DNA of 64,000 nucleotides from Gemmata palustris (GCF_017939745.1 NZ_JAGKQQ010000001.1:6089299-6153298), one strand, 5' to 3'; counted from the stretch's first letter, positions 613 through 55,726 are shown. Program-made: numbers and translations. The notes: generated by a model not told the origin, from the sequence alone.

Positions 613-2247
613 ATGGGAATTAATCCGGTTGAACCCTCCCCGACCGAAAGTGCCCAACCCGCCGCCCGTCTCGAATCCGGTGCCGATCCGACCGCTGTTC
701 CGCCCCCGGACCTCGGAATGCCGACCAGCCCGTATTCGGAGCCGGTCGGTGCGAGCGAGGCCGGTGAAACTGCAGCCGCCGAGTGGCACGCGCTCCCACC
801 CGAATCGGACGCGCCCGGCGCGCCGACGGCAGTTCCGGGTGGGTCGAAAGAACTTCTCAAACTCGCCCTGCCACTGATCGTCAGCCAGAGCTTCATGACG
901 GTGCAGGTGTTCGTGGACACCGTGCTCCTGTCGTGGCACGACCCGCTGGAAATGGCCGCGTCGTTCCCCGCGGTGATGTGGTACTGGCTGTTCTTCGGGC
1001 TGCTGCAGGTTACCGCGAGTTACACATCGACGTTCGTCGCGCAGTACACCGGAGCGAAGCGGCCCCACCGCGTCGGCGCGGCCGTGTGGCAGGGGATTCA
1101 CTTCGCGATCGTCGCGGGAATCCTGTTTTTGGTGGTAGCACCGGCGGCGCCGCTCCTCATCGCCTTCACCGGCCACCCGCCGGAGATCCAGCCGCTGGAA
1201 GCCACTTACCTCAAGTGTTTGGCGTTTGCCGCGCTGCCAATGCTCGTGATGGGTGCCGTCAACGGGTTCTTCTCGGGCCGCGGACAGACGTGGACCGTAC
1301 TGGGAATCGAAGCGTTCGGCACAGCGGTGAACATCGCCCTCGCGCTGGTACTGATCTTCGGCCGATTGGGGTTCCCGGAACTCGGCATCGAGGGCGCGGG
1401 TTGGGCGACGGTTGCGGGGTCGTGGGCCGCGGCGCTATTTGCGCTAGCGCTGATGCTCCGCAAGAAGTACCGCGCCGAGTTCGGTACGCTCAGCGGATGG
1501 AAGCCGGAGCGCGAACTGTTTCGCCGACTGATGGTTTACGGCGGCCCGGCCGGGATGCAGGTATTTTTAGATGTATTGGTGTTCCACTGCTTCACGATAC
1601 TCGTCGGGAACCTCGGCTTCGCGGCGCTCGGGGCGACCACACTCACGATCCGGCTGAACATGATCGCGTTCCTGCCGATGATGGGGATGGGGCAGGCGAT
1701 CTGCATTCTCGTCGGTCAGCGGCTCGGCGGGAACCGGCCGGATCTAGCGGAGAAGAGTACCTATACCGGGCTGAAGTGGGCGTTCGGGTACATGTGTCTC
1801 ATCGCGCTCGCCTACGTCACGATCCCGAGCATTCTGGTCGAGCCGTTCCGACCGGACAAGCCGGAGGAGCAAGAGAAGTTCGCCACGATCGTCGCACTCG
1901 TGCCGACGCTCCTGTTATGCGTCGCGGTGTTCTCCGTGGCGGACGCGATCAACGTGTCGTTCGCGTTCGCGCTCCGCGGCGCCGGGGACACGAAGTACGT
2001 CACCAAGCTGACGTTCGCGCTGGCGTGGCCGCTGATGGTGATCCCCACCGCGATCACGGTGTTCGCGGGCGGGAGCGTGTACTGGTGCTGGGTGTTCGCC
2101 ACGCTGCACATTCTCGGTATGAGCGCGTGCTTCTGGTTCCGGTTCCGTAGCGGGAAGTGGAAGTCGATGCGCGTGATCGAATCGGGCGTGGAAGAAGAAA
2201 AGAGTTTCACCGCAGAGGGCACAGAGGGCGCCGAGAAAGGCAAATAG
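613..2247 (+). CDS. MATE family multidrug/oligosaccharide efflux transporter with Pro/Ala-rich N-terminal extension
   Basis: 544 aa with about 12 hydrophobic segments and a typical MATE/NorM repeat architecture (LALPLIVSQ…; second-half repeat). Confidence 0.8.
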   Translation: MGINPVEPSPTESAQPAARLESGADPTAVPPPDLGMPTSPYSEPVGASEAGETAAAEWHALPPESDAPGAPTAVPGGSKELLKLALPLIVSQSFMTVQVFVDTVLLSWHDPLEMAASFPAVMWYWLFFGLLQVTASYTSTFVAQYTGAKRPHRVGAAVWQGIHFAIVAGILFLVVAPAAPLLIAFTGHPPEIQPLEATYLKCLAFAALPMLVMGAVNGFFSGRGQTWTVLGIEAFGTAVNIALALVLIFGRLGFPELGIEGAGWATVAGSWAAALFALALMLRKKYRAEFGTLSGWKPERELFRRLMVYGGPAGMQVFLDVLVFHCFTILVGNLGFAALGATTLTIRLNMIAFLPMMGMGQAICILVGQRLGGNRPDLAEKSTYTGLKWAFGYMCLIALAYVTIPSILVEPFRPDKPEEQEKFATIVALVPTLLLCVAVFSVADAINVSFAFALRGAGDTKYVTKLTFALAWPLMVIPTAITVFAGGSVYWCWVFATLHILGMSACFWFRFRSGKWKSMRVIESGVEEEKSFTAEGTEGAEKGK

Positions 2248-2312
2248 GAGAGTTTAAAGAGCAGTTCTGGTTCTTCTCTCCGTGCTCTCCGCGCCCTCTG
2301 CGGTGAGCACGC

Positions 2313-6084: not shown

Positions 6085-9072
6085 TCACTTTTCCGCGGGT
6101 AATTTCGCGGCCTTTTCCCGCCACGACGCGGCTTGTTTTTCGTCCTTTGCGACCCCGATGCCTTTCTCGTAGCACCGGGCCAGGTTGGTCATACCGTTCT
6201 TGTCCCCGTGGTCCGCGGCTTTGCGGTACAGTCGAACCGCTTCCCCGGCGTCCGCGGGTATACCGCGCCCGTGTTCGTAAATGAGACCGAGGTTGTTCGT
6301 GGCCCCGACGTGCCCCTGGGCGACCGCCTTTTCGTACCACTCGCGCGCCTTCACGTGGTCCGGCTTCCCGTTCCCGTCCTTGTGCTTGCCCGAACTGTAG
6401 AGGACACCGAGGTTGTGGAGGGCCTGCGCGTGCCCCTGGGCCGCGGCCTTCTCGTACCACTCTTGCGCCCTGGCGTGGTCGGGTGTGCCGGTCTTGCTGT
6501 CGTGGCGGCCCGTACCGTACAGGAACCCGAGGTACAACTGGGCGTTAGAATCGCCCTGGGCAGCCGCTTTCTCGAACAGTTCGCGCGCTTTGGTGTAGTC
6601 CTGCGTGACACCCAGGGGCCGGTAGTACAGCAGCGCGAGGTGGTACTGGCCGATGGCGTACCCCTGTTCGGCGGCCTTCTCGTACCACTCGCGCGCCGTC
6701 TTGTAGTTCTGGGTGACGCCGAGTCCGCTTTCGTACAGGACGCCCAAGTTATTTTGAGCACCGGGGTGGTTCTGCGACGCGGCCTTTTCGTACCACTCGC
6801 GGGCCTTGGCGTAGTCGGTCGAGACCCCGAGCCCGTTACCGTACAGGAGCCCAAGATTGTTCTGGGCGTTGGAGTACCCCTGTTCGGCCGATTTCTCGTA
6901 CCACGCGTGGGCCTTCGTGGGGTCTTTCTTGACCCCGCGGCCGTGAGCCAAGCAGTACCCCAATTCGTCCATCCCGATCGCGTTACCGCGGTCGGCGGCT
7001 TTGCGGAACCACGCGACCGCCTCCGGTGGGTTCTTCGTCACCCCGGAACCGGTCGCGTAGCAGTACGCCAGTTCGACCATCGCGGCCGGCCCACCGAGAT
7101 CGGCAGCTTTGCGGAACCACTCGGCGGATTCCGCTGAGTCTTTTGTCACCCCGCGCCCGTCCCGGTAACTGACCCCGAGTAAATACATTGCCATCCGGTC
7201 GTCGAGATCAGCGGCTTTGCGGAACCACGCGACCGCTTCGGTTTCGTCCTTCGGAACGCCCTTACCGTCGCGAAAGCACCCGCCCAACTCGGTCATCGCG
7301 ATCGGCTCACCGGCCTCGGCCGCTTTGCGGTACAGCCGGGCCGCCTTCGATTCGCTCTTGGCCGCGCCGATGCCGTTTTCCAGACAGTTCGCGTACAGGA
7401 CCATGCCGTACACGCAATCGCCTTCGGCCGCTTCGCGCCACGCGCGCCACCGGGTCGGCCCGCGCTCTTTGAAGAACGGGTGGGACGTTTCCCCCCCCGA
7501 GGCACTGAGGTAGTCACTCCAGTCGCGCCGGAGGTCCGCATCGATCGCCGGCTTCGGGTCCGGGGCCGCGGGCGCCGGTTCCGGCTTTTTCGGCTCCGGT
7601 TCTGGGGGTTCCGGCTTCAAAGTCGAAACCGGGCGCGGGTCCGGGGCTTCGGAAATGGGTTCGGGCTTAGTGATAACGAGTGTGGATGCGCCCGGATCTG
7701 TTACGGGCGGTTTCGGTGTCGCGCCGTCGCCGAGCGCGACCGGCGGACCCGAGTCCTTCGTGGGTTCCGGCTTCTGCATCACCAGAAGCGCCACTGCCGC
7801 CCCGCCGACCAGTAGCGCTGCGCCCGACACGAGTAACGCAATTACGGGCAGGCGCTGACGGGCTCGCGGTGCGGGCGCCGCAGTTTTTGGCGCGCGTAAT
7901 TCGCGGACCGAACGGGGGAGCGGGGGCGGGACCGGCCGGTGCTTGGCCGAGGATTGTGGCGACCGGCCCACGGGCACGGTGGGGAGTTCGGGAACCTCGT
8001 CGGCGAGGGGCGGCTCCTCGGTGAGTTCCAGCGCGCCACCCAATCGGGGTTCCGCGCTATCAAAAGCGGCCACCGGGAGCGCGCCGCCCCGCTCACTCGA
8101 GCGCAGGTAGGCCCCGAGTGCGGTCGCGAATTCTTTCGCGGAGCGGTAGCGGTCGGCGGGGTGCTTGGCCAGCGCTTTGAGGCACACGGCATCGAGCGCC
8201 GGGTCGAGGTCCCCAACGACCCGCGACGGGGGCACCGGGGCGGTTTCGCAGTGGTCGCGCATCACCTCCCAGACGGACCCGAAAAAGGGCACGCGCCCGG
8301 CGAGCATCTCGTAGAGGATGACGCCGAGGCTGTACACGTCCGACAGCGGCCCGATCTCGGCCACCAGCCCGCGGGCCTGCTCCGGGGACATGTACGCGGG
8401 CGTTCCCTTGGGCACCCCGTTACTGGCCGCGGACCCCTGATCGACGAGCCGGGCCAGCCCGAAGTCGGCGATCAAAACCTCGCGGTGGGTCTCGTCGAAG
8501 AGCACGTTCGCGGGCTTCAGGTCGCGGTGAACGACCTTCTGTGCGTGCGCCGCGGCCAGCCCCAGTGCGAGCTTCCGCGCGATCGCGAGCGCGTGGCGCG
8601 GGGGCACCGGGGCCGCGCGGCGCTGGAGCAGCCCGGCCAGCGTGCCCGGGACCACGCGCATCACGATGTAGGGCAGCGTGCCGTCGGTGCCGACCTCGTA
8701 GACCGGGCACACGTTGGGGTGGTGGATGATGGCGGCCAGTCGGTTCTCGCGGAGGAACGATTCGCGGAACTCCGGGGTCAGTTCGTCGACCTTCGGAACC
8801 TTGATCGCGACCTCTCGTTCGAGTTCCAGGTCGAACCCCAAGTACACGCGCGCGAACGCGCCCTCGCCGAGCAGCGCGCGGACCTCGAAGCGCCCGATGC
8901 GGACGGGCCGGGTGCCCGGGATCGACCGGGCCGGCGCGCTCGGACCGGTGCGCCCGCCCGTGAGCGTCTCGGGGTCCGGCGCGCGGGGCGGAGTTTTGGG
9001 TACGGCAAAATCGGCCGGGTCGAGTTCGGACATGGTGCTCGGCTCGCGGGGGAACGCGGACACGAATAACAA
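6085..9072 (-). CDS. Hanks-type Ser/Thr protein kinase, TM/Pro-rich linker, C-terminal Sel1 (TPR-like) repeats
   Basis: Kinase subdomains: GEGAFARVYLG, AIKVPK, HRDLKPANVLF, DFGLAR, PAYMSPEQ. C-terminal repeats of the form …GxGVxKDxxxAxxWYxKAAxQG… are Sel1. Confidence 0.85.
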   Translation of the reverse strand: MLFVSAFPREPSTMSELDPADFAVPKTPPRAPDPETLTGGRTGPSAPARSIPGTRPVRIGRFEVRALLGEGAFARVYLGFDLELEREVAIKVPKVDELTPEFRESFLRENRLAAIIHHPNVCPVYEVGTDGTLPYIVMRVVPGTLAGLLQRRAAPVPPRHALAIARKLALGLAAAHAQKVVHRDLKPANVLFDETHREVLIADFGLARLVDQGSAASNGVPKGTPAYMSPEQARGLVAEIGPLSDVYSLGVILYEMLAGRVPFFGSVWEVMRDHCETAPVPPSRVVGDLDPALDAVCLKALAKHPADRYRSAKEFATALGAYLRSSERGGALPVAAFDSAEPRLGGALELTEEPPLADEVPELPTVPVGRSPQSSAKHRPVPPPLPRSVRELRAPKTAAPAPRARQRLPVIALLVSGAALLVGGAAVALLVMQKPEPTKDSGPPVALGDGATPKPPVTDPGASTLVITKPEPISEAPDPRPVSTLKPEPPEPEPKKPEPAPAAPDPKPAIDADLRRDWSDYLSASGGETSHPFFKERGPTRWRAWREAAEGDCVYGMVLYANCLENGIGAAKSESKAARLYRKAAEAGEPIAMTELGGCFRDGKGVPKDETEAVAWFRKAADLDDRMAMYLLGVSYRDGRGVTKDSAESAEWFRKAADLGGPAAMVELAYCYATGSGVTKNPPEAVAWFRKAADRGNAIGMDELGYCLAHGRGVKKDPTKAHAWYEKSAEQGYSNAQNNLGLLYGNGLGVSTDYAKAREWYEKAASQNHPGAQNNLGVLYESGLGVTQNYKTAREWYEKAAEQGYAIGQYHLALLYYRPLGVTQDYTKARELFEKAAAQGDSNAQLYLGFLYGTGRHDSKTGTPDHARAQEWYEKAAAQGHAQALHNLGVLYSSGKHKDGNGKPDHVKAREWYEKAVAQGHVGATNNLGLIYEHGRGIPADAGEAVRLYRKAADHGDKNGMTNLARCYEKGIGVAKDEKQAASWREKAAKLPAEK

Positions 9073-18433: not shown

Positions 18434-18545
18434 AGCACCGCAACAGCATTGCAACGCGCGGCCGGGAGGTTCCCGGCCGTTGCTCATTTCACAGCCCGGC
18501 ACAAGGCACTTTGGTTCGCTCCACGATTGGGACGAGAAAAGCCGC

Positions 18546-18776
18546 GGATCAACGCAGATAACGCAGATAACGCAGATCAGACAAAGCAAAAGCAAAAACA
18601 GATTGGCCACAAAAAAGCAGAGGTCAGAAGGCAGAGAGCAGAGGACGAAAAGCAAGGTACCAGATCGGATGCGTATGGTTTCTCTAGCCCCATTCGAGGC
18701 AACAATACCTCTGCCCTCTGCCCCCTGCCCTCTTTTTTGTGGCTATTCCGTCTTCTGTCTTGATCTGCGTTGATCC
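18546..18776. repeat. long imperfect palindrome with purine-rich left arm, pyrimidine-rich right arm, and a 3x CGCAGATAA tandem repeat
   Basis: ggatcaacgcagat (18546-59) pairs with atctgcgttgatcc (18763-76). gccacaaaaaag (18606-17) pairs with cttttttgtggc (18732-43). AG-rich versus CT-rich arms. Local GC is well below the genome average. Confidence 0.6.
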
Positions 18777-18799
18777 GTGGCTCTTCATTCATCCTTGTT

Positions 18800-22615: not shown

Positions 22616-24427
22616 TTGATGAGTGACGCTCCACTGTCACAGTCTTCACCCGCTTCCGTTTACACCGAGCGATTGGCCGCGCGCCGCGCGACCGTGACCG
22701 CACTCGCGGCCCGGCTCGACGCGCTCAGCACCGCGCGCCTCGGGGCGTTCCTGGTGGTACTCGTGGTCGCGGGGCTGACCCTCGGCGCGGACCTCTTTTC
22801 GCCGTGGCTTACGCTGCTCCCGGCGCTCGTGTTCGTGTACTTCGTGGCGACGTTCGAGGCGACGCGCCGGCGCAAAGCGTGGGCCGAGCGCGCGACGCGG
22901 TTCTACGCGGGCGGGCTCGATCGACTGGCCGGTAAGCCCAGCGGGGTGGGTCAAGGCGAGCGCTTCGCTAGCGACGCGCACCCCTACGCCGCGGACCTCG
23001 ACCTCTTTGGTCCCGGATCGGTATTCGAGCGCGTGACCGCCTGCCGCACGCGGGCCGGTGAAGACACCCTCGCGGCATGGTTACTCGCACCGGCTGCCCC
23101 GGCAGAAGTCAAAGCGCGCCAGGAAGCCGTTGCCGATTTGACTACGAAGCTCGATTTGCGCGAAGCTATTGCGGTTGCCGGCGCGGAAGCCCCTGCAGCC
23201 GATTACCACGCCCTAGCGGAATGGGGAACGGTCCCGATCGAATCCCCGCCCGCGTGGAAGCGGTGGGCGGTGGAACTCCTCGGCTGGGCGAACGTGCTCG
23301 CGTGGGCCGGGTGGTTCTTCGTCGGTACGTCCGCCCTGCCGGTGCTCGTGTTCGGGTTACCGTCACTCGCACTGGCGCTTCCGCTCGTGTCGTGGGCACG
23401 GCGCGTACTCGCGCCGCTCGATCGCGCGACCGAGAACCTTTCCCTGTTTGAAGCCGTTCTCGGCCGATTAGAGCGCGAAACCTTCAACGCGGCGCGACTC
23501 AAAGAACTTCAAAACGCGATGCGCGCGGGCGGGTACCTGCCTTCGGAACAAATTCGGCAACTCCGATTACTCCTCGACGGCTACAACGCCCGGCGGAACG
23601 CCTTCTTTATTCCGGTCGCGGTTCTGCGCGTGTGGAACGTGCGGTTCGCGTTCAAGCTCGAAGCGTGGCGGGCGCGGTCCGGCCCTGCAATCGCGCAGTG
23701 GTTGCGCGCGGTCGGCGAAGCGGAAGCGCTCTCATCGCTCGCGGGCTACGCCTACGAGAACCCCACCGACATTTACCCGACGGTCGAAACCGGCCCGGTG
23801 CGACTCACGGCAACCGGGGTGGGTCACCCGCTGATTCCCGCCGAGAAGTGCATTCGGAACGATGTCACCCTCGGCGGCGAATCGGGACCGCGCGTCCTGA
23901 TCGTGAGCGGGTCGAATATGTCGGGTAAGAGCACGATGTTACGCGCGGTCGGCGTGAACGCAGCACTGGCCCTTGCAGGCGGAGTGGTACGTGCAACCAG
24001 CTTCGCGCTGACGCCGCTCGCTCTCGGGGCGACGATGCGAGTGCAGGACTCGCTCCAAGAGGGCAAATCGCGCTTCTTCGCGGAAGTCACGAAGGTGCGG
24101 CTCTTGCTCGACATTGCGACCCGCGAGAGCGGTTTACCGCTCCTCTTCTTGCTCGATGAGCTTTTCGCGGGTACTAACTCGGCGGACCGCGTTGCGGGCG
24201 CAGAAGGCGTAACGCGAGCGCTCCTGGACGCCGGCGCGATCGGCTTCGTGACAACGCACGACCTGAGTCTAACCGCAGTGACCGACACGATTCCCGGCGC
24301 TGTGAACGTCCACTTCTCCGACGGCTTCGGGGGCGGCGAGTTGCAGTTCGACTACACGATGCGTCCCGGCGTCGTGCCACACGGCAACGGCCTCGCCCTC
24401 ATGCGCGCGGTCGGGCTGAAGGTGTAG
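22616..24427 (+). CDS. MutS-family domain V ATPase fused to an N-terminal polytopic membrane domain (MutS2-like paralogue, no mismatch-binding domain)
   Basis: Walker A GSNMSGKST. MutS signature …LLLDIATRESGLPLLFLLDELFAGTNSADR…HDLSL. The first ~300 aa contain several hydrophobic helices. Confidence 0.7.
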   Translation: MMSDAPLSQSSPASVYTERLAARRATVTALAARLDALSTARLGAFLVVLVVAGLTLGADLFSPWLTLLPALVFVYFVATFEATRRRKAWAERATRFYAGGLDRLAGKPSGVGQGERFASDAHPYAADLDLFGPGSVFERVTACRTRAGEDTLAAWLLAPAAPAEVKARQEAVADLTTKLDLREAIAVAGAEAPAADYHALAEWGTVPIESPPAWKRWAVELLGWANVLAWAGWFFVGTSALPVLVFGLPSLALALPLVSWARRVLAPLDRATENLSLFEAVLGRLERETFNAARLKELQNAMRAGGYLPSEQIRQLRLLLDGYNARRNAFFIPVAVLRVWNVRFAFKLEAWRARSGPAIAQWLRAVGEAEALSSLAGYAYENPTDIYPTVETGPVRLTATGVGHPLIPAEKCIRNDVTLGGESGPRVLIVSGSNMSGKSTMLRAVGVNAALALAGGVVRATSFALTPLALGATMRVQDSLQEGKSRFFAEVTKVRLLLDIATRESGLPLLFLLDELFAGTNSADRVAGAEGVTRALLDAGAIGFVTTHDLSLTAVTDTIPGAVNVHFSDGFGGGELQFDYTMRPGVVPHGNGLALMRAVGLKV

Positions 24428-24467
24428 TAAACGCGGGCGCAAATCAGCTTGTGCTAATGCCTTTAAG

Positions 24468-24528
24468 CGAGCCGCGACCGCAGGGAACGGGAAGCGCCTC
24501 CCGGCTCCCTTGCGGTCGCGGCTCGTTG
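24468..24528 (+). terminator. long hairpin downstream of the MutS-like gene
   Basis: gagccgcgaccgcagggaa…tcccttgcggtcgcggctc, a ~17-bp imperfect stem. Confidence 0.4.
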
Positions 24529-24567
24529 TAGACCCGTCCCGTATCGCTTCGCTCACTTCGACAAATC

Positions 24568-29338: not shown

Positions 29339-30775
29339 ATGAGTCGCGTTCGGAACTCGGGCTGGACCCTGCCGGTGATAGCCGCCGGGAGTCTGATTGC
29401 GCTCGCGGCGTGGCAACTGGTGCCCGCCAACCAACCGCCTGCGCCGAAGCCGGACCAACCACTGGTCGCGGAGCCGGCTGCGGCCCAACCGCCGGCGGCC
29501 AACGACTTCGCCGCGGTCATGGCGAAGATGAAGGCCGCGAAAGCCGACATCGCGAAGAAGCATAACGAAATGCTGGCCGCGCGGTACGACCTCGCGGAGC
29601 GCGCCGCGGCGGACGGGAAGATGACGCGCGGCAAGGCCGTGCAGCAGGGGCCGCGCGCGAAGCTGGCCGCCGGGACCACGTGGGCCGCACTCGCGGACAT
29701 GAAGCCGGAAGAGATCCGCGAGAAGGGGCTGTTCCCCGCCGGGTACCTACCGCTGCCGCACCCGAACCACCCCGAAGGCGGGATGCTGTTCCCGAAGTTC
29801 CACATCGACGAAATCAAGAAACAAGAGGCGCGCGACCTGACGCGGTTCGATCTCGATTTCGACCTTCCCGACCACTTCCTGCCCGAGTTCCCGCCGCCGA
29901 TCTTCCTGACCACCCGACTCGACCTCGGCGACATCTCGAAGGGTAAGCTCGTCACCATCGACAACTTCGAGGAGCTGTTCAAGGACGCACTGAACCCGAA
30001 ACAACTGGAAGGGCTGCGGTTGCTCGTTACCCCGTTCCCGCAACAGCAGTTCAACATGACCGCCGACCGGCGCAGCGAGAAGGCGCACCGCGGTGTCACG
30101 TGCTTCGACTGTCACGTGAACGGCCACACGAACGCGGCCACGCACTTGGTCGGCGACATCCGACCGCAAGAGTTCCGGCACCGCATCGACGTGCCCTCGC
30201 TGCGTGGCGTGAACGTGCAGCGGCTGTTCGGCTCGCAGCGCGCACTGAAGAGTATCGAGGACTTCACCGAGTTCGAGCAACGGGCCGCGTACTTCGACGG
30301 CGACCACACGCAGGCCGCGCGGAAGGGCGTCAACCCGCTGGACCGCGGCACCCAGGTCCACTTCATGGCAGAGTTCCAGGATCTGGTCGACTTCCCGCCC
30401 GCACCGAAGCTGGATTTGTTCGGGAAACTCGATCAATCGAAGGCGACCGACAGCGAGAAGCGCGGCGAGGCGCTGTTCGTCGGTAAGGCGAAGTGTTCGA
30501 CGTGCCACCCGGCCCCGTACTACACCGACAATACGCTACACAACTTGCAGACCGAACGGTTCTTTAAGCCGGTGACGGTACTCGGGCGGACGGCGAGCGT
30601 AGACGGGCCGATCAAGACGTTCCCGCTCCGCGGTATCAAGGACAGCCCGCCGTACCTGCACGACGGCCGGTTGCTCACGCTCGAAGACACGGTCGAGTTC
30701 TTCAACCTGATTCTCGAAACGAAACTCACCGAGGACGAGAAGAAAGATCTGGTCGCGTTTATGAAGTGCCTGTAA
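29339..30775 (+). CDS. di-haem cytochrome c peroxidase-family protein (signal-anchored)
   Basis: Two CxxCH haem motifs (CFDCH, CSTCH). N-terminal TM/signal. Confidence 0.7.
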   Translation: MSRVRNSGWTLPVIAAGSLIALAAWQLVPANQPPAPKPDQPLVAEPAAAQPPAANDFAAVMAKMKAAKADIAKKHNEMLAARYDLAERAAADGKMTRGKAVQQGPRAKLAAGTTWAALADMKPEEIREKGLFPAGYLPLPHPNHPEGGMLFPKFHIDEIKKQEARDLTRFDLDFDLPDHFLPEFPPPIFLTTRLDLGDISKGKLVTIDNFEELFKDALNPKQLEGLRLLVTPFPQQQFNMTADRRSEKAHRGVTCFDCHVNGHTNAATHLVGDIRPQEFRHRIDVPSLRGVNVQRLFGSQRALKSIEDFTEFEQRAAYFDGDHTQAARKGVNPLDRGTQVHFMAEFQDLVDFPPAPKLDLFGKLDQSKATDSEKRGEALFVGKAKCSTCHPAPYYTDNTLHNLQTERFFKPVTVLGRTASVDGPIKTFPLRGIKDSPPYLHDGRLLTLEDTVEFFNLILETKLTEDEKKDLVAFMKCL

Positions 30776-30781
30776 TCCGGA

Positions 30782-31132
30782 TTTCGTTGGGATTTTGTAG
30801 GGTGGGTCCAGGCTTTGCGCAGGCCCACCAGCCGGTCTTTGGCTTGCTGGTAGGCCCGGGGCTTGCGAGGCATTTTTGGTCTTGTGGGTCTTGTAGGGTG
30901 GGTCCGGGCTCTGCGCCGGCCCCTATCCGGTCTTCGACTCGTCAATGAGGAGCTTGCGAGCGCTTCGTTTATATTCGCGCTCGCAAGCAGGTGTGGTGGG
31001 TCTGCGCAGAGCCTGGACCCACCCTACAACTACAACAAAGAGCTTGCGGGCGCTTCGTTTGTATTCGCGCTCGCAAGCGGGTGTGGTGGGCCTGCGCAAA
31101 GCCTGGACCCACCCTACAAAATCCCAACGAAA
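30782..31132. mobile_element. 351-bp MITE-like / nested REP-like element with perfect 48-bp terminal inverted repeats
   Basis: tttcgttgggattttgtagggtgggtccaggctttgcgcaggcccacc (30782-30829) is the exact reverse complement of 31085-31132. Internal imperfect inverted pair at 30891-30923 / 30995-31030. Two ~90-bp direct units each carrying a 12-bp-stem hairpin gcttgcgagcgc…gcgctcgcaagc (30951-30987, 31041-31077). Confidence 0.65.
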
Positions 31133-31135
31133 CCC

Positions 31136-32866
31136 TTACCCGACCTTCGCGTGTGTGCCGTTCGTGCTCGGCGGCTTGCTCTCGGTGGGTGATTCGCTGG
31201 TGAGCTTCGCGAGGTACTCGGGCACCTCCACGCCGCCGATGTCCTTCATCACTTGCATCATCGGCGGCATCATCCGGGCCATGTTCTGAAGGAACGAAGC
31301 CGTGCTCGACGTGCCGGCGGCCGCGTTCCCTCCCCCACCACCTTCCCACACCACCACCTTGTCGAACTTGATGTTCGAGATGGCCTTCGCGGAGGCGTCC
31401 GCGAGCGCGTCCATGTGTTCGAGCATGAGCAACTGGAACGCGGCCTGTGGGCTGCCGCACGCATCGATGATCTTCTTCAACCCCTCGCCCTTCTTCGCCA
31501 GGATCTCGAATTGGCCGCGGGCCTCGGCTTCGAGCTTCGCGTAGATGGTCGCGGCGGCGGCTTGCGCTTCGAGCTTCACGCGCTCCGCAGCGGCCTCGGC
31601 GTCCACGATTATCTTCGCCTTCTGAGCCTTCGCGGGAGCTTCGAGCGCGGCGCGCTGTTCGGCTTCGATCTTCTCGGCCTGTGCGAGTGCGGCCCGGGCC
31701 ATCGCCTTGTTCTGCGCTTCCAGAACCGCGGCTTCCGCTTCGCGCTTCTTCGTTTCGGAAATTTGATACGCCTCGGCGTTCTTCACCGCGAGCGTGGCCT
31801 GCGCGCCCGCGATACTGGCTTGCGCAGTGGCCTCACCGCCGATCGCTGTGGCATTGGCTTCAGCCAAACGCACGCGCTTGTCGCGGTCGGCCTCGGCGAT
31901 GCGCGATTCCCGCTCGAACACGGCTTGCTGCTCGCCGACCTTCTGGTCGCGGTCGAGTTCGGCGATGCGGATCGCTTGCTGGCGCTGCGATTCCTTGATG
32001 AGCGTTTCTTGTTCGAGCAGCGCGGTCTGCTCGCCGACCTCCCGGTCCTTGTCGAGTTGGGCGACCTTGATGGCCTGCTCGCGGGTCGCTTCGCGGGTGC
32101 CGATCTCGCGCACCTTCGTCGCGTTCGCGACCGAGATGGCCCGCTCGCGCTCGGCCTCCGCGACGCCGATCTGCCCCTTCTTCTCTTGTTCCGCCACGTC
32201 GATTTTCGCTTGCTGGATCGCGACCGCGGCCGCCTTCCGGCCGATGGCCTCGATGTAGCCGCTCTCGTCCGTGATGTCGGTGATGTTCACGTTGATGAGC
32301 ACGAGGCCGATCTTCTTCAGCTCCGGTTCGAGCGACTTCTGCACGCTCTCCAAGAACTGGTCGCGGTTGCGGTTGATGTCCTCGATCCGCATGGACGCGA
32401 TCACCTGCCGCAGTTGGCCGAAGATGATGTCGCGCGCCTGTTCCTTGATCTCCTGGGTGCCGAGACCGAGGAGCCGGATCGCGGCGTTCTGCATCGTTTC
32501 CGGGTCGGTGCCGATGGCGACGGTGAACACGCTGGGCACGTTCACGCGGATGTTCTCGATCGAGAGGGCGCCCTTGAGCGGCACTTCGATCTGGATCGGG
32601 TCGAGGTTGAGGTAGGCGTAGTCCTGAACGAGGGGCAGCACGAACGCCGCACCGCCGTGGACGCACTTGGCCGCGTTCCCGCCGCCGGTCTTACCGTAGA
32701 TCACGAGGATGCGGTTCGAGGGGCAGCGCTTGTAGCGCCTCACGAGGAGCATGAGGAGGCTGAAGAGGACCAGCCCGGCGGCCAGTGCGGTGACGACCGG
32801 CCACGGGACGTCCGCGAGGTTCGGGTCGCCGGATTTCGATTGAGCGAGGAGAGCGAGCGACAACAT
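31136..32866 (-). CDS. floT: flotillin-like SPFH/band-7 protein (YqiK/FloT type)
   Basis: N-terminal TM, SPFH domain, long Ala/Glu/Lys coiled-coil repeats. Start at MLSL… with GGAG 7 nt upstream. Confidence 0.85.
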   Translation of the reverse strand: MLSLALLAQSKSGDPNLADVPWPVVTALAAGLVLFSLLMLLVRRYKRCPSNRILVIYGKTGGGNAAKCVHGGAAFVLPLVQDYAYLNLDPIQIEVPLKGALSIENIRVNVPSVFTVAIGTDPETMQNAAIRLLGLGTQEIKEQARDIIFGQLRQVIASMRIEDINRNRDQFLESVQKSLEPELKKIGLVLINVNITDITDESGYIEAIGRKAAAVAIQQAKIDVAEQEKKGQIGVAEAERERAISVANATKVREIGTREATREQAIKVAQLDKDREVGEQTALLEQETLIKESQRQQAIRIAELDRDQKVGEQQAVFERESRIAEADRDKRVRLAEANATAIGGEATAQASIAGAQATLAVKNAEAYQISETKKREAEAAVLEAQNKAMARAALAQAEKIEAEQRAALEAPAKAQKAKIIVDAEAAAERVKLEAQAAAATIYAKLEAEARGQFEILAKKGEGLKKIIDACGSPQAAFQLLMLEHMDALADASAKAISNIKFDKVVVWEGGGGGNAAAGTSSTASFLQNMARMMPPMMQVMKDIGGVEVPEYLAKLTSESPTESKPPSTNGTHAKVG

Positions 32867-35915: not shown

Positions 35916-35924
35916 GGATTAATT

Positions 35925-36524
35925 GTGATTCGGAGTGAGATTTCGGGACGAAAACGGCTCTTGAAAGGGTGTGCCATTGCGTGGACGGTGGCGCACCTCT
36001 TCCCAGACTATTCATGTCGGCGGGCTCTTCTTGTCGCAGAAAAACTCGCTGACGGGAACGCAACCAGCGATGACTGGTCGGCTGCTATCTCGCAATGCGG
36101 TGCGCACCTCTATCACCTGCGAATGACGGAGGACGCGAAAGTTGCAGCCGACATGGTGTGTTGGATTCACCTTTGTGGTAGAACACCGCCCGATCAACTT
36201 TACGAACGACTACTACACACCGCGGCAGGCGCACTCGCCCGACCAACCCAGGAGCGAGATTATTGGCTGAGCCATTTTCAATCTCTTTTTAACGATATTG
36301 AAACACATTCAGGACCATTTTCTCCATCGTGGCGTACCGGAACTGTCGGATCACTTGCTCGTGTAATGTACGAGTCACGCGACTTCAGCGCGATGCCGAT
36401 CCTGGCCGACGCACTTCAGGACGCCGGCTGCGACAACGCCGACATTCTTTCTCACTGCCGCGATACGTCGCTGACACACGTCCGCGGGTGCTGGGTTGTT
36501 GACCTCGCACTCGGCAAGCAGTGA
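35925..36524 (+). CDS. hypothetical protein (conserved C-terminal MPILADALQDAGC…HCR…HVRGCWVVDL motif)
   Basis: 199-aa ORF with lower GC than its surroundings. Family not securely identified. Confidence 0.45.
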   Translation: MIRSEISGRKRLLKGCAIAWTVAHLFPDYSCRRALLVAEKLADGNATSDDWSAAISQCGAHLYHLRMTEDAKVAADMVCWIHLCGRTPPDQLYERLLHTAAGALARPTQERDYWLSHFQSLFNDIETHSGPFSPSWRTGTVGSLARVMYESRDFSAMPILADALQDAGCDNADILSHCRDTSLTHVRGCWVVDLALGKQ

Positions 36525-36551: not shown

Positions 36552-37145
36552 ATGACTGCTAACCCACCCCCATCATCGGAACGCTCGCGCCGGTTGACCC
36601 GAGAGCAGTATTACGAACTCGGTAACCGCGGCTTCTTCGACGGTAAGCGGGTCGAACTCATTTTCGGAGAGGTCGTCGAAATGAGTCCGATCAACTGGCC
36701 CCACGCGCTCGGTGTAGGACTCGTCACGGACATACTCCGGGTTGCTTTCACACCAGACTACTGGATCAACGTCCAGCAACCGTTCTCGGTGTTGGGCTTG
36801 GCTTTTGGTTCGGAACCACAACCGGACGTGGCCGTAATTCCGGGCACGAAACGAGACTACACCGATCACCCGACCGTCGCGGCCCTGATCGTCGAAGTCG
36901 CGGACGCAACCCTGTCTAACGACCTCACGACGAAGGCCGAACTGTACGCGACCGCGCACGTCCCCGAATATTGGGTGTTGGACGTGGCGAACCGACAACT
37001 CCACGTCTTCCGCAACCCGGCGCCTCTCGCCGCCGGATTAGACGCCACGGCCTACGGCTCGCACGCGACACTGGCACCCACAGACACCGTTTCGCCGCTC
37101 GCGGCCCCCGGCGCATCGATCCGGGTTAGCGATCTTCTGCCGTGA
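36552..37145 (+). CDS. Uma2-family (DUF820) putative restriction-endonuclease-like protein
   Basis: Typical Uma2 layout: …LTREQYYEL……PDVAVIPG…YWVLDV… PD-(D/E)xK-like core. Confidence 0.75.
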   Translation: MTANPPPSSERSRRLTREQYYELGNRGFFDGKRVELIFGEVVEMSPINWPHALGVGLVTDILRVAFTPDYWINVQQPFSVLGLAFGSEPQPDVAVIPGTKRDYTDHPTVAALIVEVADATLSNDLTTKAELYATAHVPEYWVLDVANRQLHVFRNPAPLAAGLDATAYGSHATLAPTDTVSPLAAPGASIRVSDLLP

Positions 37146-37241: not shown

Positions 37242-37328
37242 GGAGAGGTGGCAGAGTGGTCGATTGTGCAGCACTGGAAATGCTGTGTACGGGAAACCGT
37301 ACCGAGGGTTCGAATCCCTCCCTCTCCG
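37242..37328 (+). tRNA. tRNA-Ser (anticodon GGA)
   Basis: Acceptor GGAGAGG/CCTCTCC. Anticodon stem CAGCA/TGCTG with loop CTGGAAA. Long variable arm GTACGGGAAACCGTAC. T-loop GAGGG-TTCGAAT-CCCTC. Discriminator G. Confidence 0.9.
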
Positions 37329-43718: not shown

Positions 43719-43759
43719 TAAACGTCGAGGGGGCGCAAAGTTTGCGCCCCCTCGACGTT
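43719..43759. terminator. bidirectional intrinsic terminator (perfect 20-bp-stem palindrome) between the LapA-like gene and ligA
   Basis: AAACGTCGAGGGGGCGCAAA-g-TTTGCGCCCCCTCGACGTTT. Confidence 0.75.
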
Positions 43760-43772
43760 TCGACGACTCGGT

Positions 43773-49603: not shown

Positions 49604-49680
49604 AGCGTCACAGGTCGCAGGTCCGGAAGTCGTAAAGTCGAAGAACAGATCGCGACCCGACTTTACGACTTCCGGCCCTG
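49604..49680. terminator. long-stem hairpin (bidirectional terminator) between convergent genes
   Basis: gtcacaggtcgcaggtccggaagtcgtaaagtcg … cgactttacgacttccggccctgcgatctgtgac; ~34-bp stem with 2-3 mismatches. Confidence 0.6.
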
Positions 49681-49697
49681 CGATCTGTGACGGGTCT

Positions 49698-53760: not shown

Positions 53761-53916
53761 CGGGTAAACCTCGTGCGGAAAGGTGGCACGAGGCGGATTG
53801 TAGCCGGTCGCGAGCCATTTGGACCGAAGAAAGGTGAGCGCTGCCCTTGTTCTTGGTAAAATGAGTTGAGAAGCTCAAAGCGAGGTGCAGAAACCGTGCT
53901 CAAGGCAAGTGAATTC

Positions 53917-54618
53917 ATGCCGATTGCGTTTGAAGCGACCGCCGTCGGCTTCAATTTGAGCGCCTCGAGAAGTAAGCTCGCCGCCCGTCTGCTCAATCAC
54001 TACGGCGACCGTATCGACGACATCACCGAGTTAGGTTTTACCCGACGGAAGCAATCCTACTCGGATGAGTTCCAAATCATGTTTGGGAGCGTGGGATTTC
54101 TTACGGTCGATCACATCAGGGCGAAGGTTGAATGCGGTTTTCCCGCCGAATCTGGTCCGGGAAAGAAATGGATACCCGAGCGCGTGAACTGGGCGGTCGA
54201 TCTCCTCTCGCTGATCTTAGACTTTCACAAGCAACGAGCGTGCTCCTTGTGGTTTGAAATGACTTGGCTTCTTTGGGAGGAATCTTCCACGACTCGTCTG
54301 ATAGATCAGCTGGGGTTAACTCGCTCCTTGAACGGGTTCTTTGCCGCGTCCCAAGAGTTTGAAATTCGTGGCGACTCGCAAACGGAATTGCCGGGGCTGT
54401 TCCCGGTAACGTGCGAGCTCACGATGGGGCGCATGGTAAACTACGAGCCGCCCGAAGATATTGGGGTTCAATTAAAGTACCGAAGCCCAGACAATCGACA
54501 CGATGATGATTACCCTGTTGACTACTCTCGGGAGACACTCGACCTGTTCTTTGCAACTGCTCCAGAGGTCATGTATCAACAGTTCGATCGTTTGTTCCCG
54601 GATGGAGAAGCTCCATGA
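53917..54618 (+). CDS. hypothetical protein A of low-GC three-gene operon
   Basis: ATG 53917; the track allows TTG 53866. About 53% GC with AT-rich third codon positions. No recognisable motif. Confidence 0.5.
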   Translation: MPIAFEATAVGFNLSASRSKLAARLLNHYGDRIDDITELGFTRRKQSYSDEFQIMFGSVGFLTVDHIRAKVECGFPAESGPGKKWIPERVNWAVDLLSLILDFHKQRACSLWFEMTWLLWEESSTTRLIDQLGLTRSLNGFFAASQEFEIRGDSQTELPGLFPVTCELTMGRMVNYEPPEDIGVQLKYRSPDNRHDDDYPVDYSRETLDLFFATAPEVMYQQFDRLFPDGEAP

Positions 54619-55124
54619 ATACTTGGCCCCGGCAGGACAATCTCACTTTCGCCCTCTCGGACCGGTCGCGGCACAGTTCTGAACCTATCCGAGAGAAAAA
54701 ATTCCGAGTCGTGCGCGGAGCTAAGGGGGCTTCGCGATTCCAGTTTTGTCGCACGAACGCGCGCGCGGACGACCAAGGCAAGATAGATGAACACCTCGCG
54801 TACTTGAAGCGCATGGCGACCGATGCGGTCGTGTCGCCCGCACTCGCGCACCGGGCCAAAGTTGTCTGGCATGTTGCTTGGATCTCTTTGGAAGGTGCAT
54901 TGCCCGTTCCGGCAGCTGCCGCAATTACCGATGGACCTGTCGAGTATTTCTGGGAGATCGGGGCGCATCAGATGTCGGTCGAAATTCCGGTCGAAGGTGC
55001 GTGCCACTGGTTCTACCGGAACAAGACCACCGGCGAAGTGTGGGGCGGTGATAACCCAACCGACGACGTATTGCCCTTGCGCATCGTTCGCTATTTAGAG
55101 CGCCTCGTAGCGAGCAAACACTGA
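54615..55124 (+). CDS. hypothetical protein B of low-GC three-gene operon
   Basis: Start overlaps the gene A stop (ATGA). 169 aa with no recognisable motif. Confidence 0.5.
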   Translation: MNTWPRQDNLTFALSDRSRHSSEPIREKKFRVVRGAKGASRFQFCRTNARADDQGKIDEHLAYLKRMATDAVVSPALAHRAKVVWHVAWISLEGALPVPAAAAITDGPVEYFWEIGAHQMSVEIPVEGACHWFYRNKTTGEVWGGDNPTDDVLPLRIVRYLERLVASKH

Positions 55125-55726
55125 TGCCGTCGGACGCCCAGCCCGAACCAATTATTCCTGGCCTGGACGGGACTCCCGTGCCTGGAGGGATACGCGCTAT
55201 CCGCATGGGCAATGAACCCAAGCTCGACAATCTCAGTCCCGAAGCACTTCGACGAGTTCAAGAAGGGAAGGCGATCCCGTCTTTCTTTAAGTTGTCATCC
55301 GAAGACGAGAAGCAAATCGTCCCGCGCCTTTCCGTCTGGCTTGAACCATTGACCAGTGTAGCTCAAGCCTGGATTTTAGTTGGTGCGAATTTAAAACGTC
55401 GCTGGGTGTTATTCCTGAAGATCGACCAAATTCGCACTGTCATCGCACCGGCGGTAGAGAAGTTCCCGCAAACGCCGCCACTTGAAGTTGAATGGGAGCG
55501 TGCGACCCGGCTGACGGAAGCTGGTGATCGCGTTCCAGAAACCCGCACCGGGTGGGAAGGGCACGCAGGAATCACGAATCTGAACAAGGGAAACAAAACA
55601 CAGCGAGAGGCAATCCGCTGGCAACTGGCCGATCTCGCTGTGGTACAAATCCTATCGGAAGAAGATTTGACTTCGTTTATCAATGAGCAGAAGTCAGACC
55701 ATAAATCTTCCTCTACACCTTCTTAA
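55124..55726 (+). CDS. hypothetical protein C of low-GC three-gene operon
   Basis: Start overlaps the gene B stop (TGATG). 200 aa, about 52% GC, no recognisable motif. Confidence 0.5.
   Translation: MPSDAQPEPIIPGLDGTPVPGGIRAIRMGNEPKLDNLSPEALRRVQEGKAIPSFFKLSSEDEKQIVPRLSVWLEPLTSVAQAWILVGANLKRRWVLFLKIDQIRTVIAPAVEKFPQTPPLEVEWERATRLTEAGDRVPETRTGWEGHAGITNLNKGNKTQREAIRWQLADLAVVQILSEEDLTSFINEQKSDHKSSSTPS

Follow-up and report, generated by a model that had tools for sequence, protein, structure and literature searches.

The window analysed here is a 64,000-nt stretch of the Gemmata palustris genome (GCF_017939745.1, NZ_JAGKQQ010000001.1:6089299-6153298), in which the gap between two convergent genes is filled by a composite palindrome of 357 bp (30779-31135, 60 % G+C). 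The gene upstream of the palindrome (29339-30775, + strand) encodes a 478-aa protein identical to Gemmata palustris G18 protein P0001; its homologues are labelled cytochrome c peroxidase (CCP) or 'cytochrome B6' by their sources, and it has no Pfam match. The gene downstream (31136-32866, - strand, stop codon 31136-31138) encodes a 576-aa flotillin-like protein with an SPFH/Band_7 domain. The names cytochrome-c peroxidase and flotillin given to these genes in the original prediction are both sustained, the former by the names of homologues and the latter by the Pfam match. The palindrome starts 3 nt past the stop of the + strand gene (30775) and directly abuts position 31136, in agreement with the earlier statement that the element occupies the whole of the convergent gap.

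The outer arms of the palindrome (30779-30830, + orientation, and 31084-31135, - orientation) are complementary at 51 of 52 nt (98 %, one mismatch), and each consists of a 36-nt unit, which we call R, and a 17-nt extension on its outer side (GGATTTCGTTGGGATTT in the left arm). Within the arms, the exact inverted stretch measures 49 nt (30782-30830 and 31084-31132), so that the 48-nt exact terminal repeat of the original prediction was right to within 1 nt, and the imperfect internal pair of the same motif was likewise recovered, as 41 nt of 83 % identity at 30882-30922 and 30998-31038. The locus thus contains nested inverted pairs, with units R1 and R4 outside and R2 and R3 inside, giving the order + + - -. 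When a 376-nt stretch covering the element was folded, the + strand reached -257.5 kcal/mol (z = -19.7) and the - strand -235.5 kcal/mol (z = -16.8), and on neither strand did any shuffled sequence fold as well.

R1 (30795-30830, +; TTGTAGGGTGGGTCCAGGCTTTGCGCAGGCCCACCA) and R4 (31084-31119, -) are identical 36-nt units carrying a GTAG tag. R3 (30994-31029, -) has 2 differences from R1, one of which turns the stem pair T.G into T-A, and R2 (30891-30926, +) is the most diverged, with decay in the 3' stem half (GGCCCCTAT; the 3' half of the R unit is GGCTTTGCGCAGGCCCACC). A 14-nt core, TGTAGGGTGGGTCC, occurs in all four units (30796 and 30892 on the + strand, 31028 and 31118 on the - strand), against a chance expectation of 0.34 occurrences, and nowhere in the rest of the 64-kb window. 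Folded singly, an R unit leaves TTGTAG unpaired and forms an 8-bp imperfect stem, GGTGGGTC / GGCCCACC (GGTGGGtC / GgCCCACC), placed directly after the GTAG and closed by a 13-nt loop. To the four units of the window we added two from each of two doublets in other planctomycetes (L010 and L030, described below) and one diverged unit from locus L036; in the consensus fold of these nine, columns 1-8, which end in GTAG, are unpaired, the stem is formed by columns 9-16 and 30-37, and one stem pair varies in a compensatory manner, being U.G in six units, U-A in one (R3) and A-U in one (L036). R is therefore an imperfect palindrome within the 20-40-nt range with an unpaired GTAG at its 5' foot. It is by such an unpaired GTAG, at the base of a stem of 6-13 bp, that the GTAG REP super-family is defined, and this super-family is already recorded from the planctomycetes Rhodopirellula baltica and Planctomyces, the former of which also has RAYTs (PMC3733652). 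The imperfection of the stem and its G.T pairs are shared with these REPs as well, whereas the 13-nt loop of R is large.

The interior of the palindrome holds two copies of a spacer hairpin, H. In H1 (30952-30988), a perfect stem of 12 bp (GCTTGCGAGCGC) encloses a loop of 13 nt; H2 (31042-31078) has one G:T pair in its stem (GCTTGCGGGCGC / GCGCTCGCAAGC) and is followed on the - strand by TCTTTGTTG. Each copy belongs to one of two tandem 90-bp units, consisting of H and an R unit on the - strand, which span 30943-31119 and are 91-93 % identical; direct comparison of 30943-31029 with 31033-31119 gave 91 % identity over 87 nt at a spacing of 90, and TRF gave a period of 90, 1.9 copies and 93 % matches. 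Accordingly, the two direct units of about 90 bp in the original prediction stand, and the perfect 12-bp stem ascribed to both of them holds for H1 and fails for H2. The left half contains an older pair of tandem units of ~96 bp, absent from that description, which cover 30790-30981 on the + strand and consist of R and a spacer ending in GCTTGCGAG; this weaker 96-nt period is carried by 30790-30826 and 30886-30922, with 86 % identity over R and ~70 % beyond. The sequence GCTTGCGAG itself recurs in 90-nt phase, at 30861, 30952 and 31042, and no further copy of hairpin H was found in the ~340 kb of DNA examined.

The original prediction had proposed a comparison with empty sites in related strains, and syntenic loci were available from three relatives: L012, from an ENA assembly, with 96.2-97.3 % DNA identity (about 96.5 %), L013, with 82-93 %, and L014, from G. 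massiliana, with 84-94 %. All three retain full synteny, lack the R element, and carry in the gap an unrelated hairpin made of heptad repeats, of 91 bp in L012 (11438-11528), 111 bp in L013 (11432-11542) and 167 bp in L014 (11435-11601), whose arms are tandem (GCAGAGA)n facing (CCTCTGT)n. A hairpin of the same heptad type is found elsewhere in the window, at about 18536-18790, and in the family as a whole the arms are (GCAGAGG/GCAGAGA)n facing (CCTCTGC/CTTCTGT)n; the L014 hairpin has ~10 additional heptads on one arm only, and the window's copy is nested in an outer inverted repeat carrying (AACGCAGAT)x3. At the studied gap, homology to the relatives ends 1 nt past the CCP stop codon and restarts at the flotillin stop codon. 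On both flanks the window differs from L012 to an even degree (0-15 mismatches per 150 nt), and the lack of any tract of elevated divergence at the junctions led us to reject import of the region by recombination from a distant donor; an assembly artefact was rejected as well, since synteny runs on at both sides and both stop codons are intact. In a more distant Gemmataceae contig (L030, 4388-4437), the CCP-like and Band_7 genes have 50 nt in common where their 3' ends overlap and leave no gap, which indicates that a hairpin between them is not obligatory. Since L012, L013 and L014 share the heptad hairpin and L030 has no gap, the heptad hairpin appears to be the ancestral state for Gemmata proper, with the R cluster as a derived state.

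Long hairpins are present in four of the eight convergent gaps of the window (2207-2306, 18536-18786, 49606-49692 and the R cluster), and a further one lies directly after a stop codon at 43720-43760, so that transcript ends in this DNA seem usually to carry a long hairpin. That hairpin-filled convergent gaps are so common here supports a shared structural role. The R cluster stands apart from the other hairpins, as its module is a different one and is shared with other genomes. The hairpins at 2207-2306, 49606-49692 and 43720-43760 are unique, with arms of 30-35 nt or a perfect 20-nt palindrome, and two of them contain or begin with CGTC, by which the other REP super-family in the literature is tagged.

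Several other differences and repeats were recorded in the same comparisons. Locus L036 carries at 7975-8070, 3' of a 145-aa gene, a long hairpin of CGCAGAT-type nonamers (GCCGCAGATAAACGCAGAAATCGCAGATCAG...) that resembles the (AACGCAGAT)x3 arm at 18551-18577 of the window, and in L030 the equivalent neighbourhood has an R doublet instead. The hairpin at 24468-24525 of the window is conserved in L012 (window 24427-24556 versus L012 4997-5209), where it is wrapped by an additional 26-nt inverted pair, GCGAACGGCCGGCATGAGCCGGCTGG / CCAGCCGGCTCACGCCGGCCGTTCGC, and this is another gain or loss of a nested palindrome between the two strains. Just upstream of a tRNA gene (37242-37328), the window (35917-36365) and L012 (16311-16830) differ by a replacement with unrelated sequence, ~450-520 bp long, which takes up the initial two thirds of an ORF (199 aa versus 243 aa); the last part of the ORF and the next gene, which encodes a Uma2-family protein, remain homologous. 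The best match of this Uma2-family protein (36552-37145) in a collection of 5.8 billion protein clusters is 91 % identical and none is identical, from which it follows that proteins of the source are only partly represented in that collection, given that the neighbouring CCP protein does have an identical entry. Finally, the stretch 53866-55726 has a low G+C content (0.56 versus ~0.64) and a run of three + strand ORFs (250, 169 and 200 aa), none of which has a Pfam match, and it may be foreign DNA.

We scanned 185,579 species genomes for exact matches to a 19-nt pattern from the head of R, TTGTAGGGTGGGTCCNGGC. The scan returned 11 loci, 3 of them from planctomycete MAGs that have one locus each; it returned no locus with the window's own four matches, the window, and perhaps the genome as a whole, being masked or absent in that collection. 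Locus L010, from a Singulisphaera MAG, contains an 85-bp head-to-head doublet with its GTAG ends pointing outward, located between two co-directional genes. It is identical to the window at 40 of 40 nt, the rest of the 8-kb locus bears no resemblance to the window, and the 85 nt fold at -46 kcal/mol (z = -12). A second doublet, of 88 bp, was detected with an R-unit profile in the Gemmataceae contig represented by L030, L034 and L035, a locus chosen for another reason. It fills the convergent gap between an aldose-epimerase gene and a 142-aa gene, beginning 1 nt past one stop codon and ending ~6 nt short of the other, and its units match R1 at 35 of 36 nt, while the neighbouring coding DNA is 77.5-82 % identical and the CCP gene of the same contig encodes a protein with 81 % identity to that of the window. 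The single variant, C->A (GTAGGGTGGGTCMRGGC), is present in both arms of this doublet, which is what copying of the whole doublet as one unit would produce. Since the exact 19-nt pattern could not find the L030 variant, scans of this kind underestimate the R family.

Two further Gemmataceae MAGs (L005, 5061-5111, and L006, 4036-4080) contain a single palindrome, TTGTAGGGTGGGTCCGGGCGGTAC-GGA-GTACCGCCCGGACCCACCCTAC, that has the 19-nt head of R, a different inner part and a perfect 23-bp stem, in L005 in a divergent gap beside queC and in L006 3' of a stop codon; L036 has its diverged R-like singlet directly 3' of a stop codon. R is thus found at unrelated, extragenic sites (the CCP/flotillin gap, L010, L030, L005 and L006), and in L010, in L030 and in the pairs of the window it forms inverted doublets whose short spacer allows them to fold as one hairpin. 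What the window has in common with L010 and L030 is the 36-40-nt R unit only, to the exclusion of the outer 17 nt and the interior of the element. The 97-100 % conservation of R across Gemmataceae and Isosphaeraceae points to a putative sequence-specific partner or to recent horizontal spread. The pattern TTGTAGGGTGGGTCCNGGC also led to three Rhizobium halophilum contigs, which share GTAAGCCGCTTCGGTCAGAGCCCTGCGTGGACCCTTCAAGTTGTAGGGTGGGTCCGGGCTTC (L002 2172-2232, L003 6924-6984, L009 1-62), adjoining an end of the recovered locus DNA in L003 and L009; this sequence resembles the terminus of an insertion element that is unrelated and multi-copy, and it matched the pattern by chance.

All available counts point to a low copy number for the R family. 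REPs occur at a density of ~1 per 7-8 kb in E. coli and P. putida, which would predict ~8 in 64 kb, and there are 0 further R copies in the window outside the element. About 140 kb of other Gemmataceae DNA contained one R doublet and one relic, and a metagenome scan with the same 19-nt pattern gave 10 matches, all by chance and none with a palindrome partner; two scans of viral contigs gave chance matches or none, and the whole element had no blastn match in plasmids and phages. At the protein level, one reading frame of the element had only low-identity matches to long repetitive proteins among 1.84 billion representatives, and a concatenated six-frame translation of the H+R unit had none at E <= 10 among 5.8 billion clusters; the 12-aa translation of a single R could not score, so that these searches exclude only ORFs with doublets or with H+R. 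No RAYT/Y1 transposase (PF01797) was detected by Pfam in the four genes around the element, in ten other ORFs of the window, most of them located where a GC3-based choice of ORFs had assigned none, or in the ORFs beside the L010 doublet, and no locus in the 185,579 species genomes had two matches ~1 kb apart, the pattern of a REP-flanked RAYT gene. The R family may be low-copy or decaying, or G18 may hold many copies.

The explanation that we favour, with a probability of about 0.6, is that four GTAG-tagged REP-like units make up the element, as a cluster of the REP/REPIN/BIME type in a loose sense. A clustered REP/BIME-type array was among the possibilities named in the original prediction, and it is supported by a 36-nt GTAG-tagged imperfect palindrome that is found in head-to-head doublets at unrelated intergenic sites. 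In GTAG REPs, the spacers of head-to-head dimers measure 20-100 bp and can include small stem-loops, a REP located between convergent genes is <20 bp away from each of the two stop codons, and tandem reiteration of units together with the DNA beside them gives rise to clusters (Di Nocera et al. 2013, PMC3733652); the R cluster agrees on each of these points, with inverted dimers whose GTAG ends point outward, as in GTAG REPs and E. coli BIMEs, and with units <=20 bp from the convergent stop codons. The order + + - - speaks against this assignment, as it places some units head to tail, and head-to-tail neighbours are rare in REP families (PMC3733652). The R cluster also differs from GTAG REPs in that tens to hundreds of copies are not in evidence, as counted in the 64-kb window, and in that its outer arms pair perfectly over 49 nt, 14 of which lie past the unit, and R is conserved over two planctomycete families, whereas REP families are usually species- or genus-specific.

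In a REP/REPIN-type cluster, the propagating unit would most likely be the head-to-head doublet (R - short spacer - R', GTAG outward). Such a doublet would have entered the gap between the convergent genes in this lineage and taken the place of the ancestral heptad-repeat hairpin, and local growth to two nested head-to-head pairs could then have proceeded by tandem duplication of 90-96 bp, by insertion of a doublet into a doublet, or by both; REPIN clusters are known to arise also through insertion of REPINs into REPINs (PMC3116915). Movement would probably proceed via single-stranded DNA, with a RAYT-type HUH/Y1 transposase acting in trans, a route that would leave no target duplication. The element is not flanked by a target-site duplication (left flank ...TAATCC, right flank TTACCC...), and the three sites in the window, L010 and L030 share no flanking direct repeat except a 3-nt GAC in L030 that is probably due to chance, which fits the HUH/Y1 route and not a DDE transposon. 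As in the REPIN/RAYT system (Bertels & Rainey 2011, PMC3116915; Nunvar et al. 2010), an inverted doublet with its spacer appears to be the replicating hairpin, a variant is common to both arms of the L030 doublet, and clusters are nested or tandem and lack target duplications; the differences are that no RAYT gene or RAYT-adjacent cluster was present among the ORFs scanned and that the population is probably small.

Once in place, the cluster would probably serve as a two-way transcript-end or 3'-protecting structure for both convergent mRNAs, a role that long hairpins of unrelated sequence would fill in this genome's other convergent gaps and, in the relatives, in this same gap. Each of these mRNAs meets a sense-oriented R <=20 nt from its stop codon, followed by a very stable hairpin, and this proximity, the T-rich runs after sub-hairpins on both strands and the fact that the displaced structure was also a hairpin are what suggest such a role to us. 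One T-rich run, ATTTTTGG, was seen by eye at 30872-30879 on the + strand (T5 at 30873-30877). Like bidirectional intrinsic terminators, the element is a G+C-rich hairpin between two stops with T-rich runs after its sub-hairpins; unlike them, it is far larger than needed (357 bp, about -250 kcal/mol), and a consensus terminator scan found no canonical stem-loop with a T-run inside it.

Two other histories of the palindrome have to be weighed against that of a REP/REPIN-type cluster. The hairpin could have grown in place by local duplication, inversion and homogenisation of its arms, with no dedicated mobility, in a gap that is selected for a long hairpin, and the matches to R elsewhere would then stem from recombination or from short stretches of DNA that were captured occasionally. 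The relatives do fill the same gap with a long hairpin of unrelated sequence, unique long hairpins are found in several other convergent gaps of the window, tandem duplication has clearly taken place locally in the interior, hairpin H is confined to this locus within the ~340 kb, and all evidence on copy number is low. We nevertheless consider this history unlikely, since doublets matching at 40/40 nt in a Singulisphaera MAG and at 35/36 nt in Gemmataceae, in different gene contexts, cannot arise independently, the build of a GTAG foot plus stem is that of a known mobile class, and the overlapping genes of L030 manage with no hairpin. A second history, also raised by the original prediction, is that of a classical MITE, a non-autonomous derivative of 351-357 bp of a DDE-type IS with terminal inverted repeats of 49-52 bp, mobilised in trans by the transposase of its parent. 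Its terminal inverted repeats are long and nearly perfect (51/52 nt), it has no coding capacity, it is present in one strain and absent from a relative of 96.5 % identity, and, like Correia elements, ERIC/IRU, RUP and Nezha, it is small and intergenic and forms a strong hairpin. A 9-bp direct repeat, GCTTGCGAG / GCTTGCGGG, moreover brackets the inner 172 bp (30870-31041) and could be the target duplication of a nested insertion, but this repeat is in phase with the 90-nt tandem period and so needs no transposition. The outer ends lack a target-site duplication (flanks TCC and TTA), neither the window nor plasmids or phages yielded a further complete copy, and no pair of ends at the spacing of an IS, nor a parent IS, was found in the 185,579 species genomes or the metagenome set. 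Other genomes share R and neither the outer 17 nt nor the interior, R occurs there as 85-88-bp doublets lacking target duplications, and the interior of the element consists of more terminal units, so that we regard a MITE as rather improbable.

The third suggestion of the original prediction, a structured RNA locus, such as a non-coding RNA gene or a cis-regulatory RNA in the gap, could draw on the extremely stable predicted folding of both strands and on the G.U pairs that R and H2 have on their sense strands. Both strands fold equally well, however, as would those of any DNA palindrome, and there is no Rfam match to 30650-31250, either at the gathering score or at E <= 1 (over the whole window, Rfam 15 at the gathering score matched only the tRNA at 37242-37328). 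No promoter-like site was found, and close relatives, including the one of 96.5 % identity, lack the element while retaining the genes on either side, all of which makes an RNA locus highly improbable. A CRISPR-like array was rejected, given the facing orientation of the units and the homology among the 'spacers', and so was an operator or transcription-factor site, as there are four copies in a convergent gap with no promoter. We also considered a more far-reaching scheme, in which CAGAG heptads, AACGCAGAT nonamers and R would be interchangeable 'hairpin cassettes' of Gemmataceae gaps, and a dedicated protein partner would recognise R, keep it 97-100 % identical and install doublets at resident hairpins or transcript ends by stop-to-stop replacement. 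Although we find this scheme quite doubtful, if true it would amount to a hairpin-targeted, replacement-type mobility that is not described for REP/RAYT systems.

We conclude that the R cluster probably belongs to the known REP/REPIN class and does not represent a new class of system. Such elements are well studied in Proteobacteria and hardly in Planctomycetes, and we found no description of REP/REPIN-type elements from Gemmata in the literature. Two features are mildly unusual: a 36-nt unit that is nearly invariant across Gemmataceae and Isosphaeraceae, where coding DNA is ~20 % diverged, and the clean replacement of another type of hairpin between the stop codons. In practice, the element can serve as a strain marker and is a likely source of trouble in replication or assembly. 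The locus also provides a clean before-and-after pair, in which two genomes of 96.5 % identity differ by the stop-to-stop exchange of one hairpin type for another, and this pair should be useful for following how a palindrome arrives, how a cluster grows, and whether the newcomer takes over the 3'-end function of the structure that it displaced.
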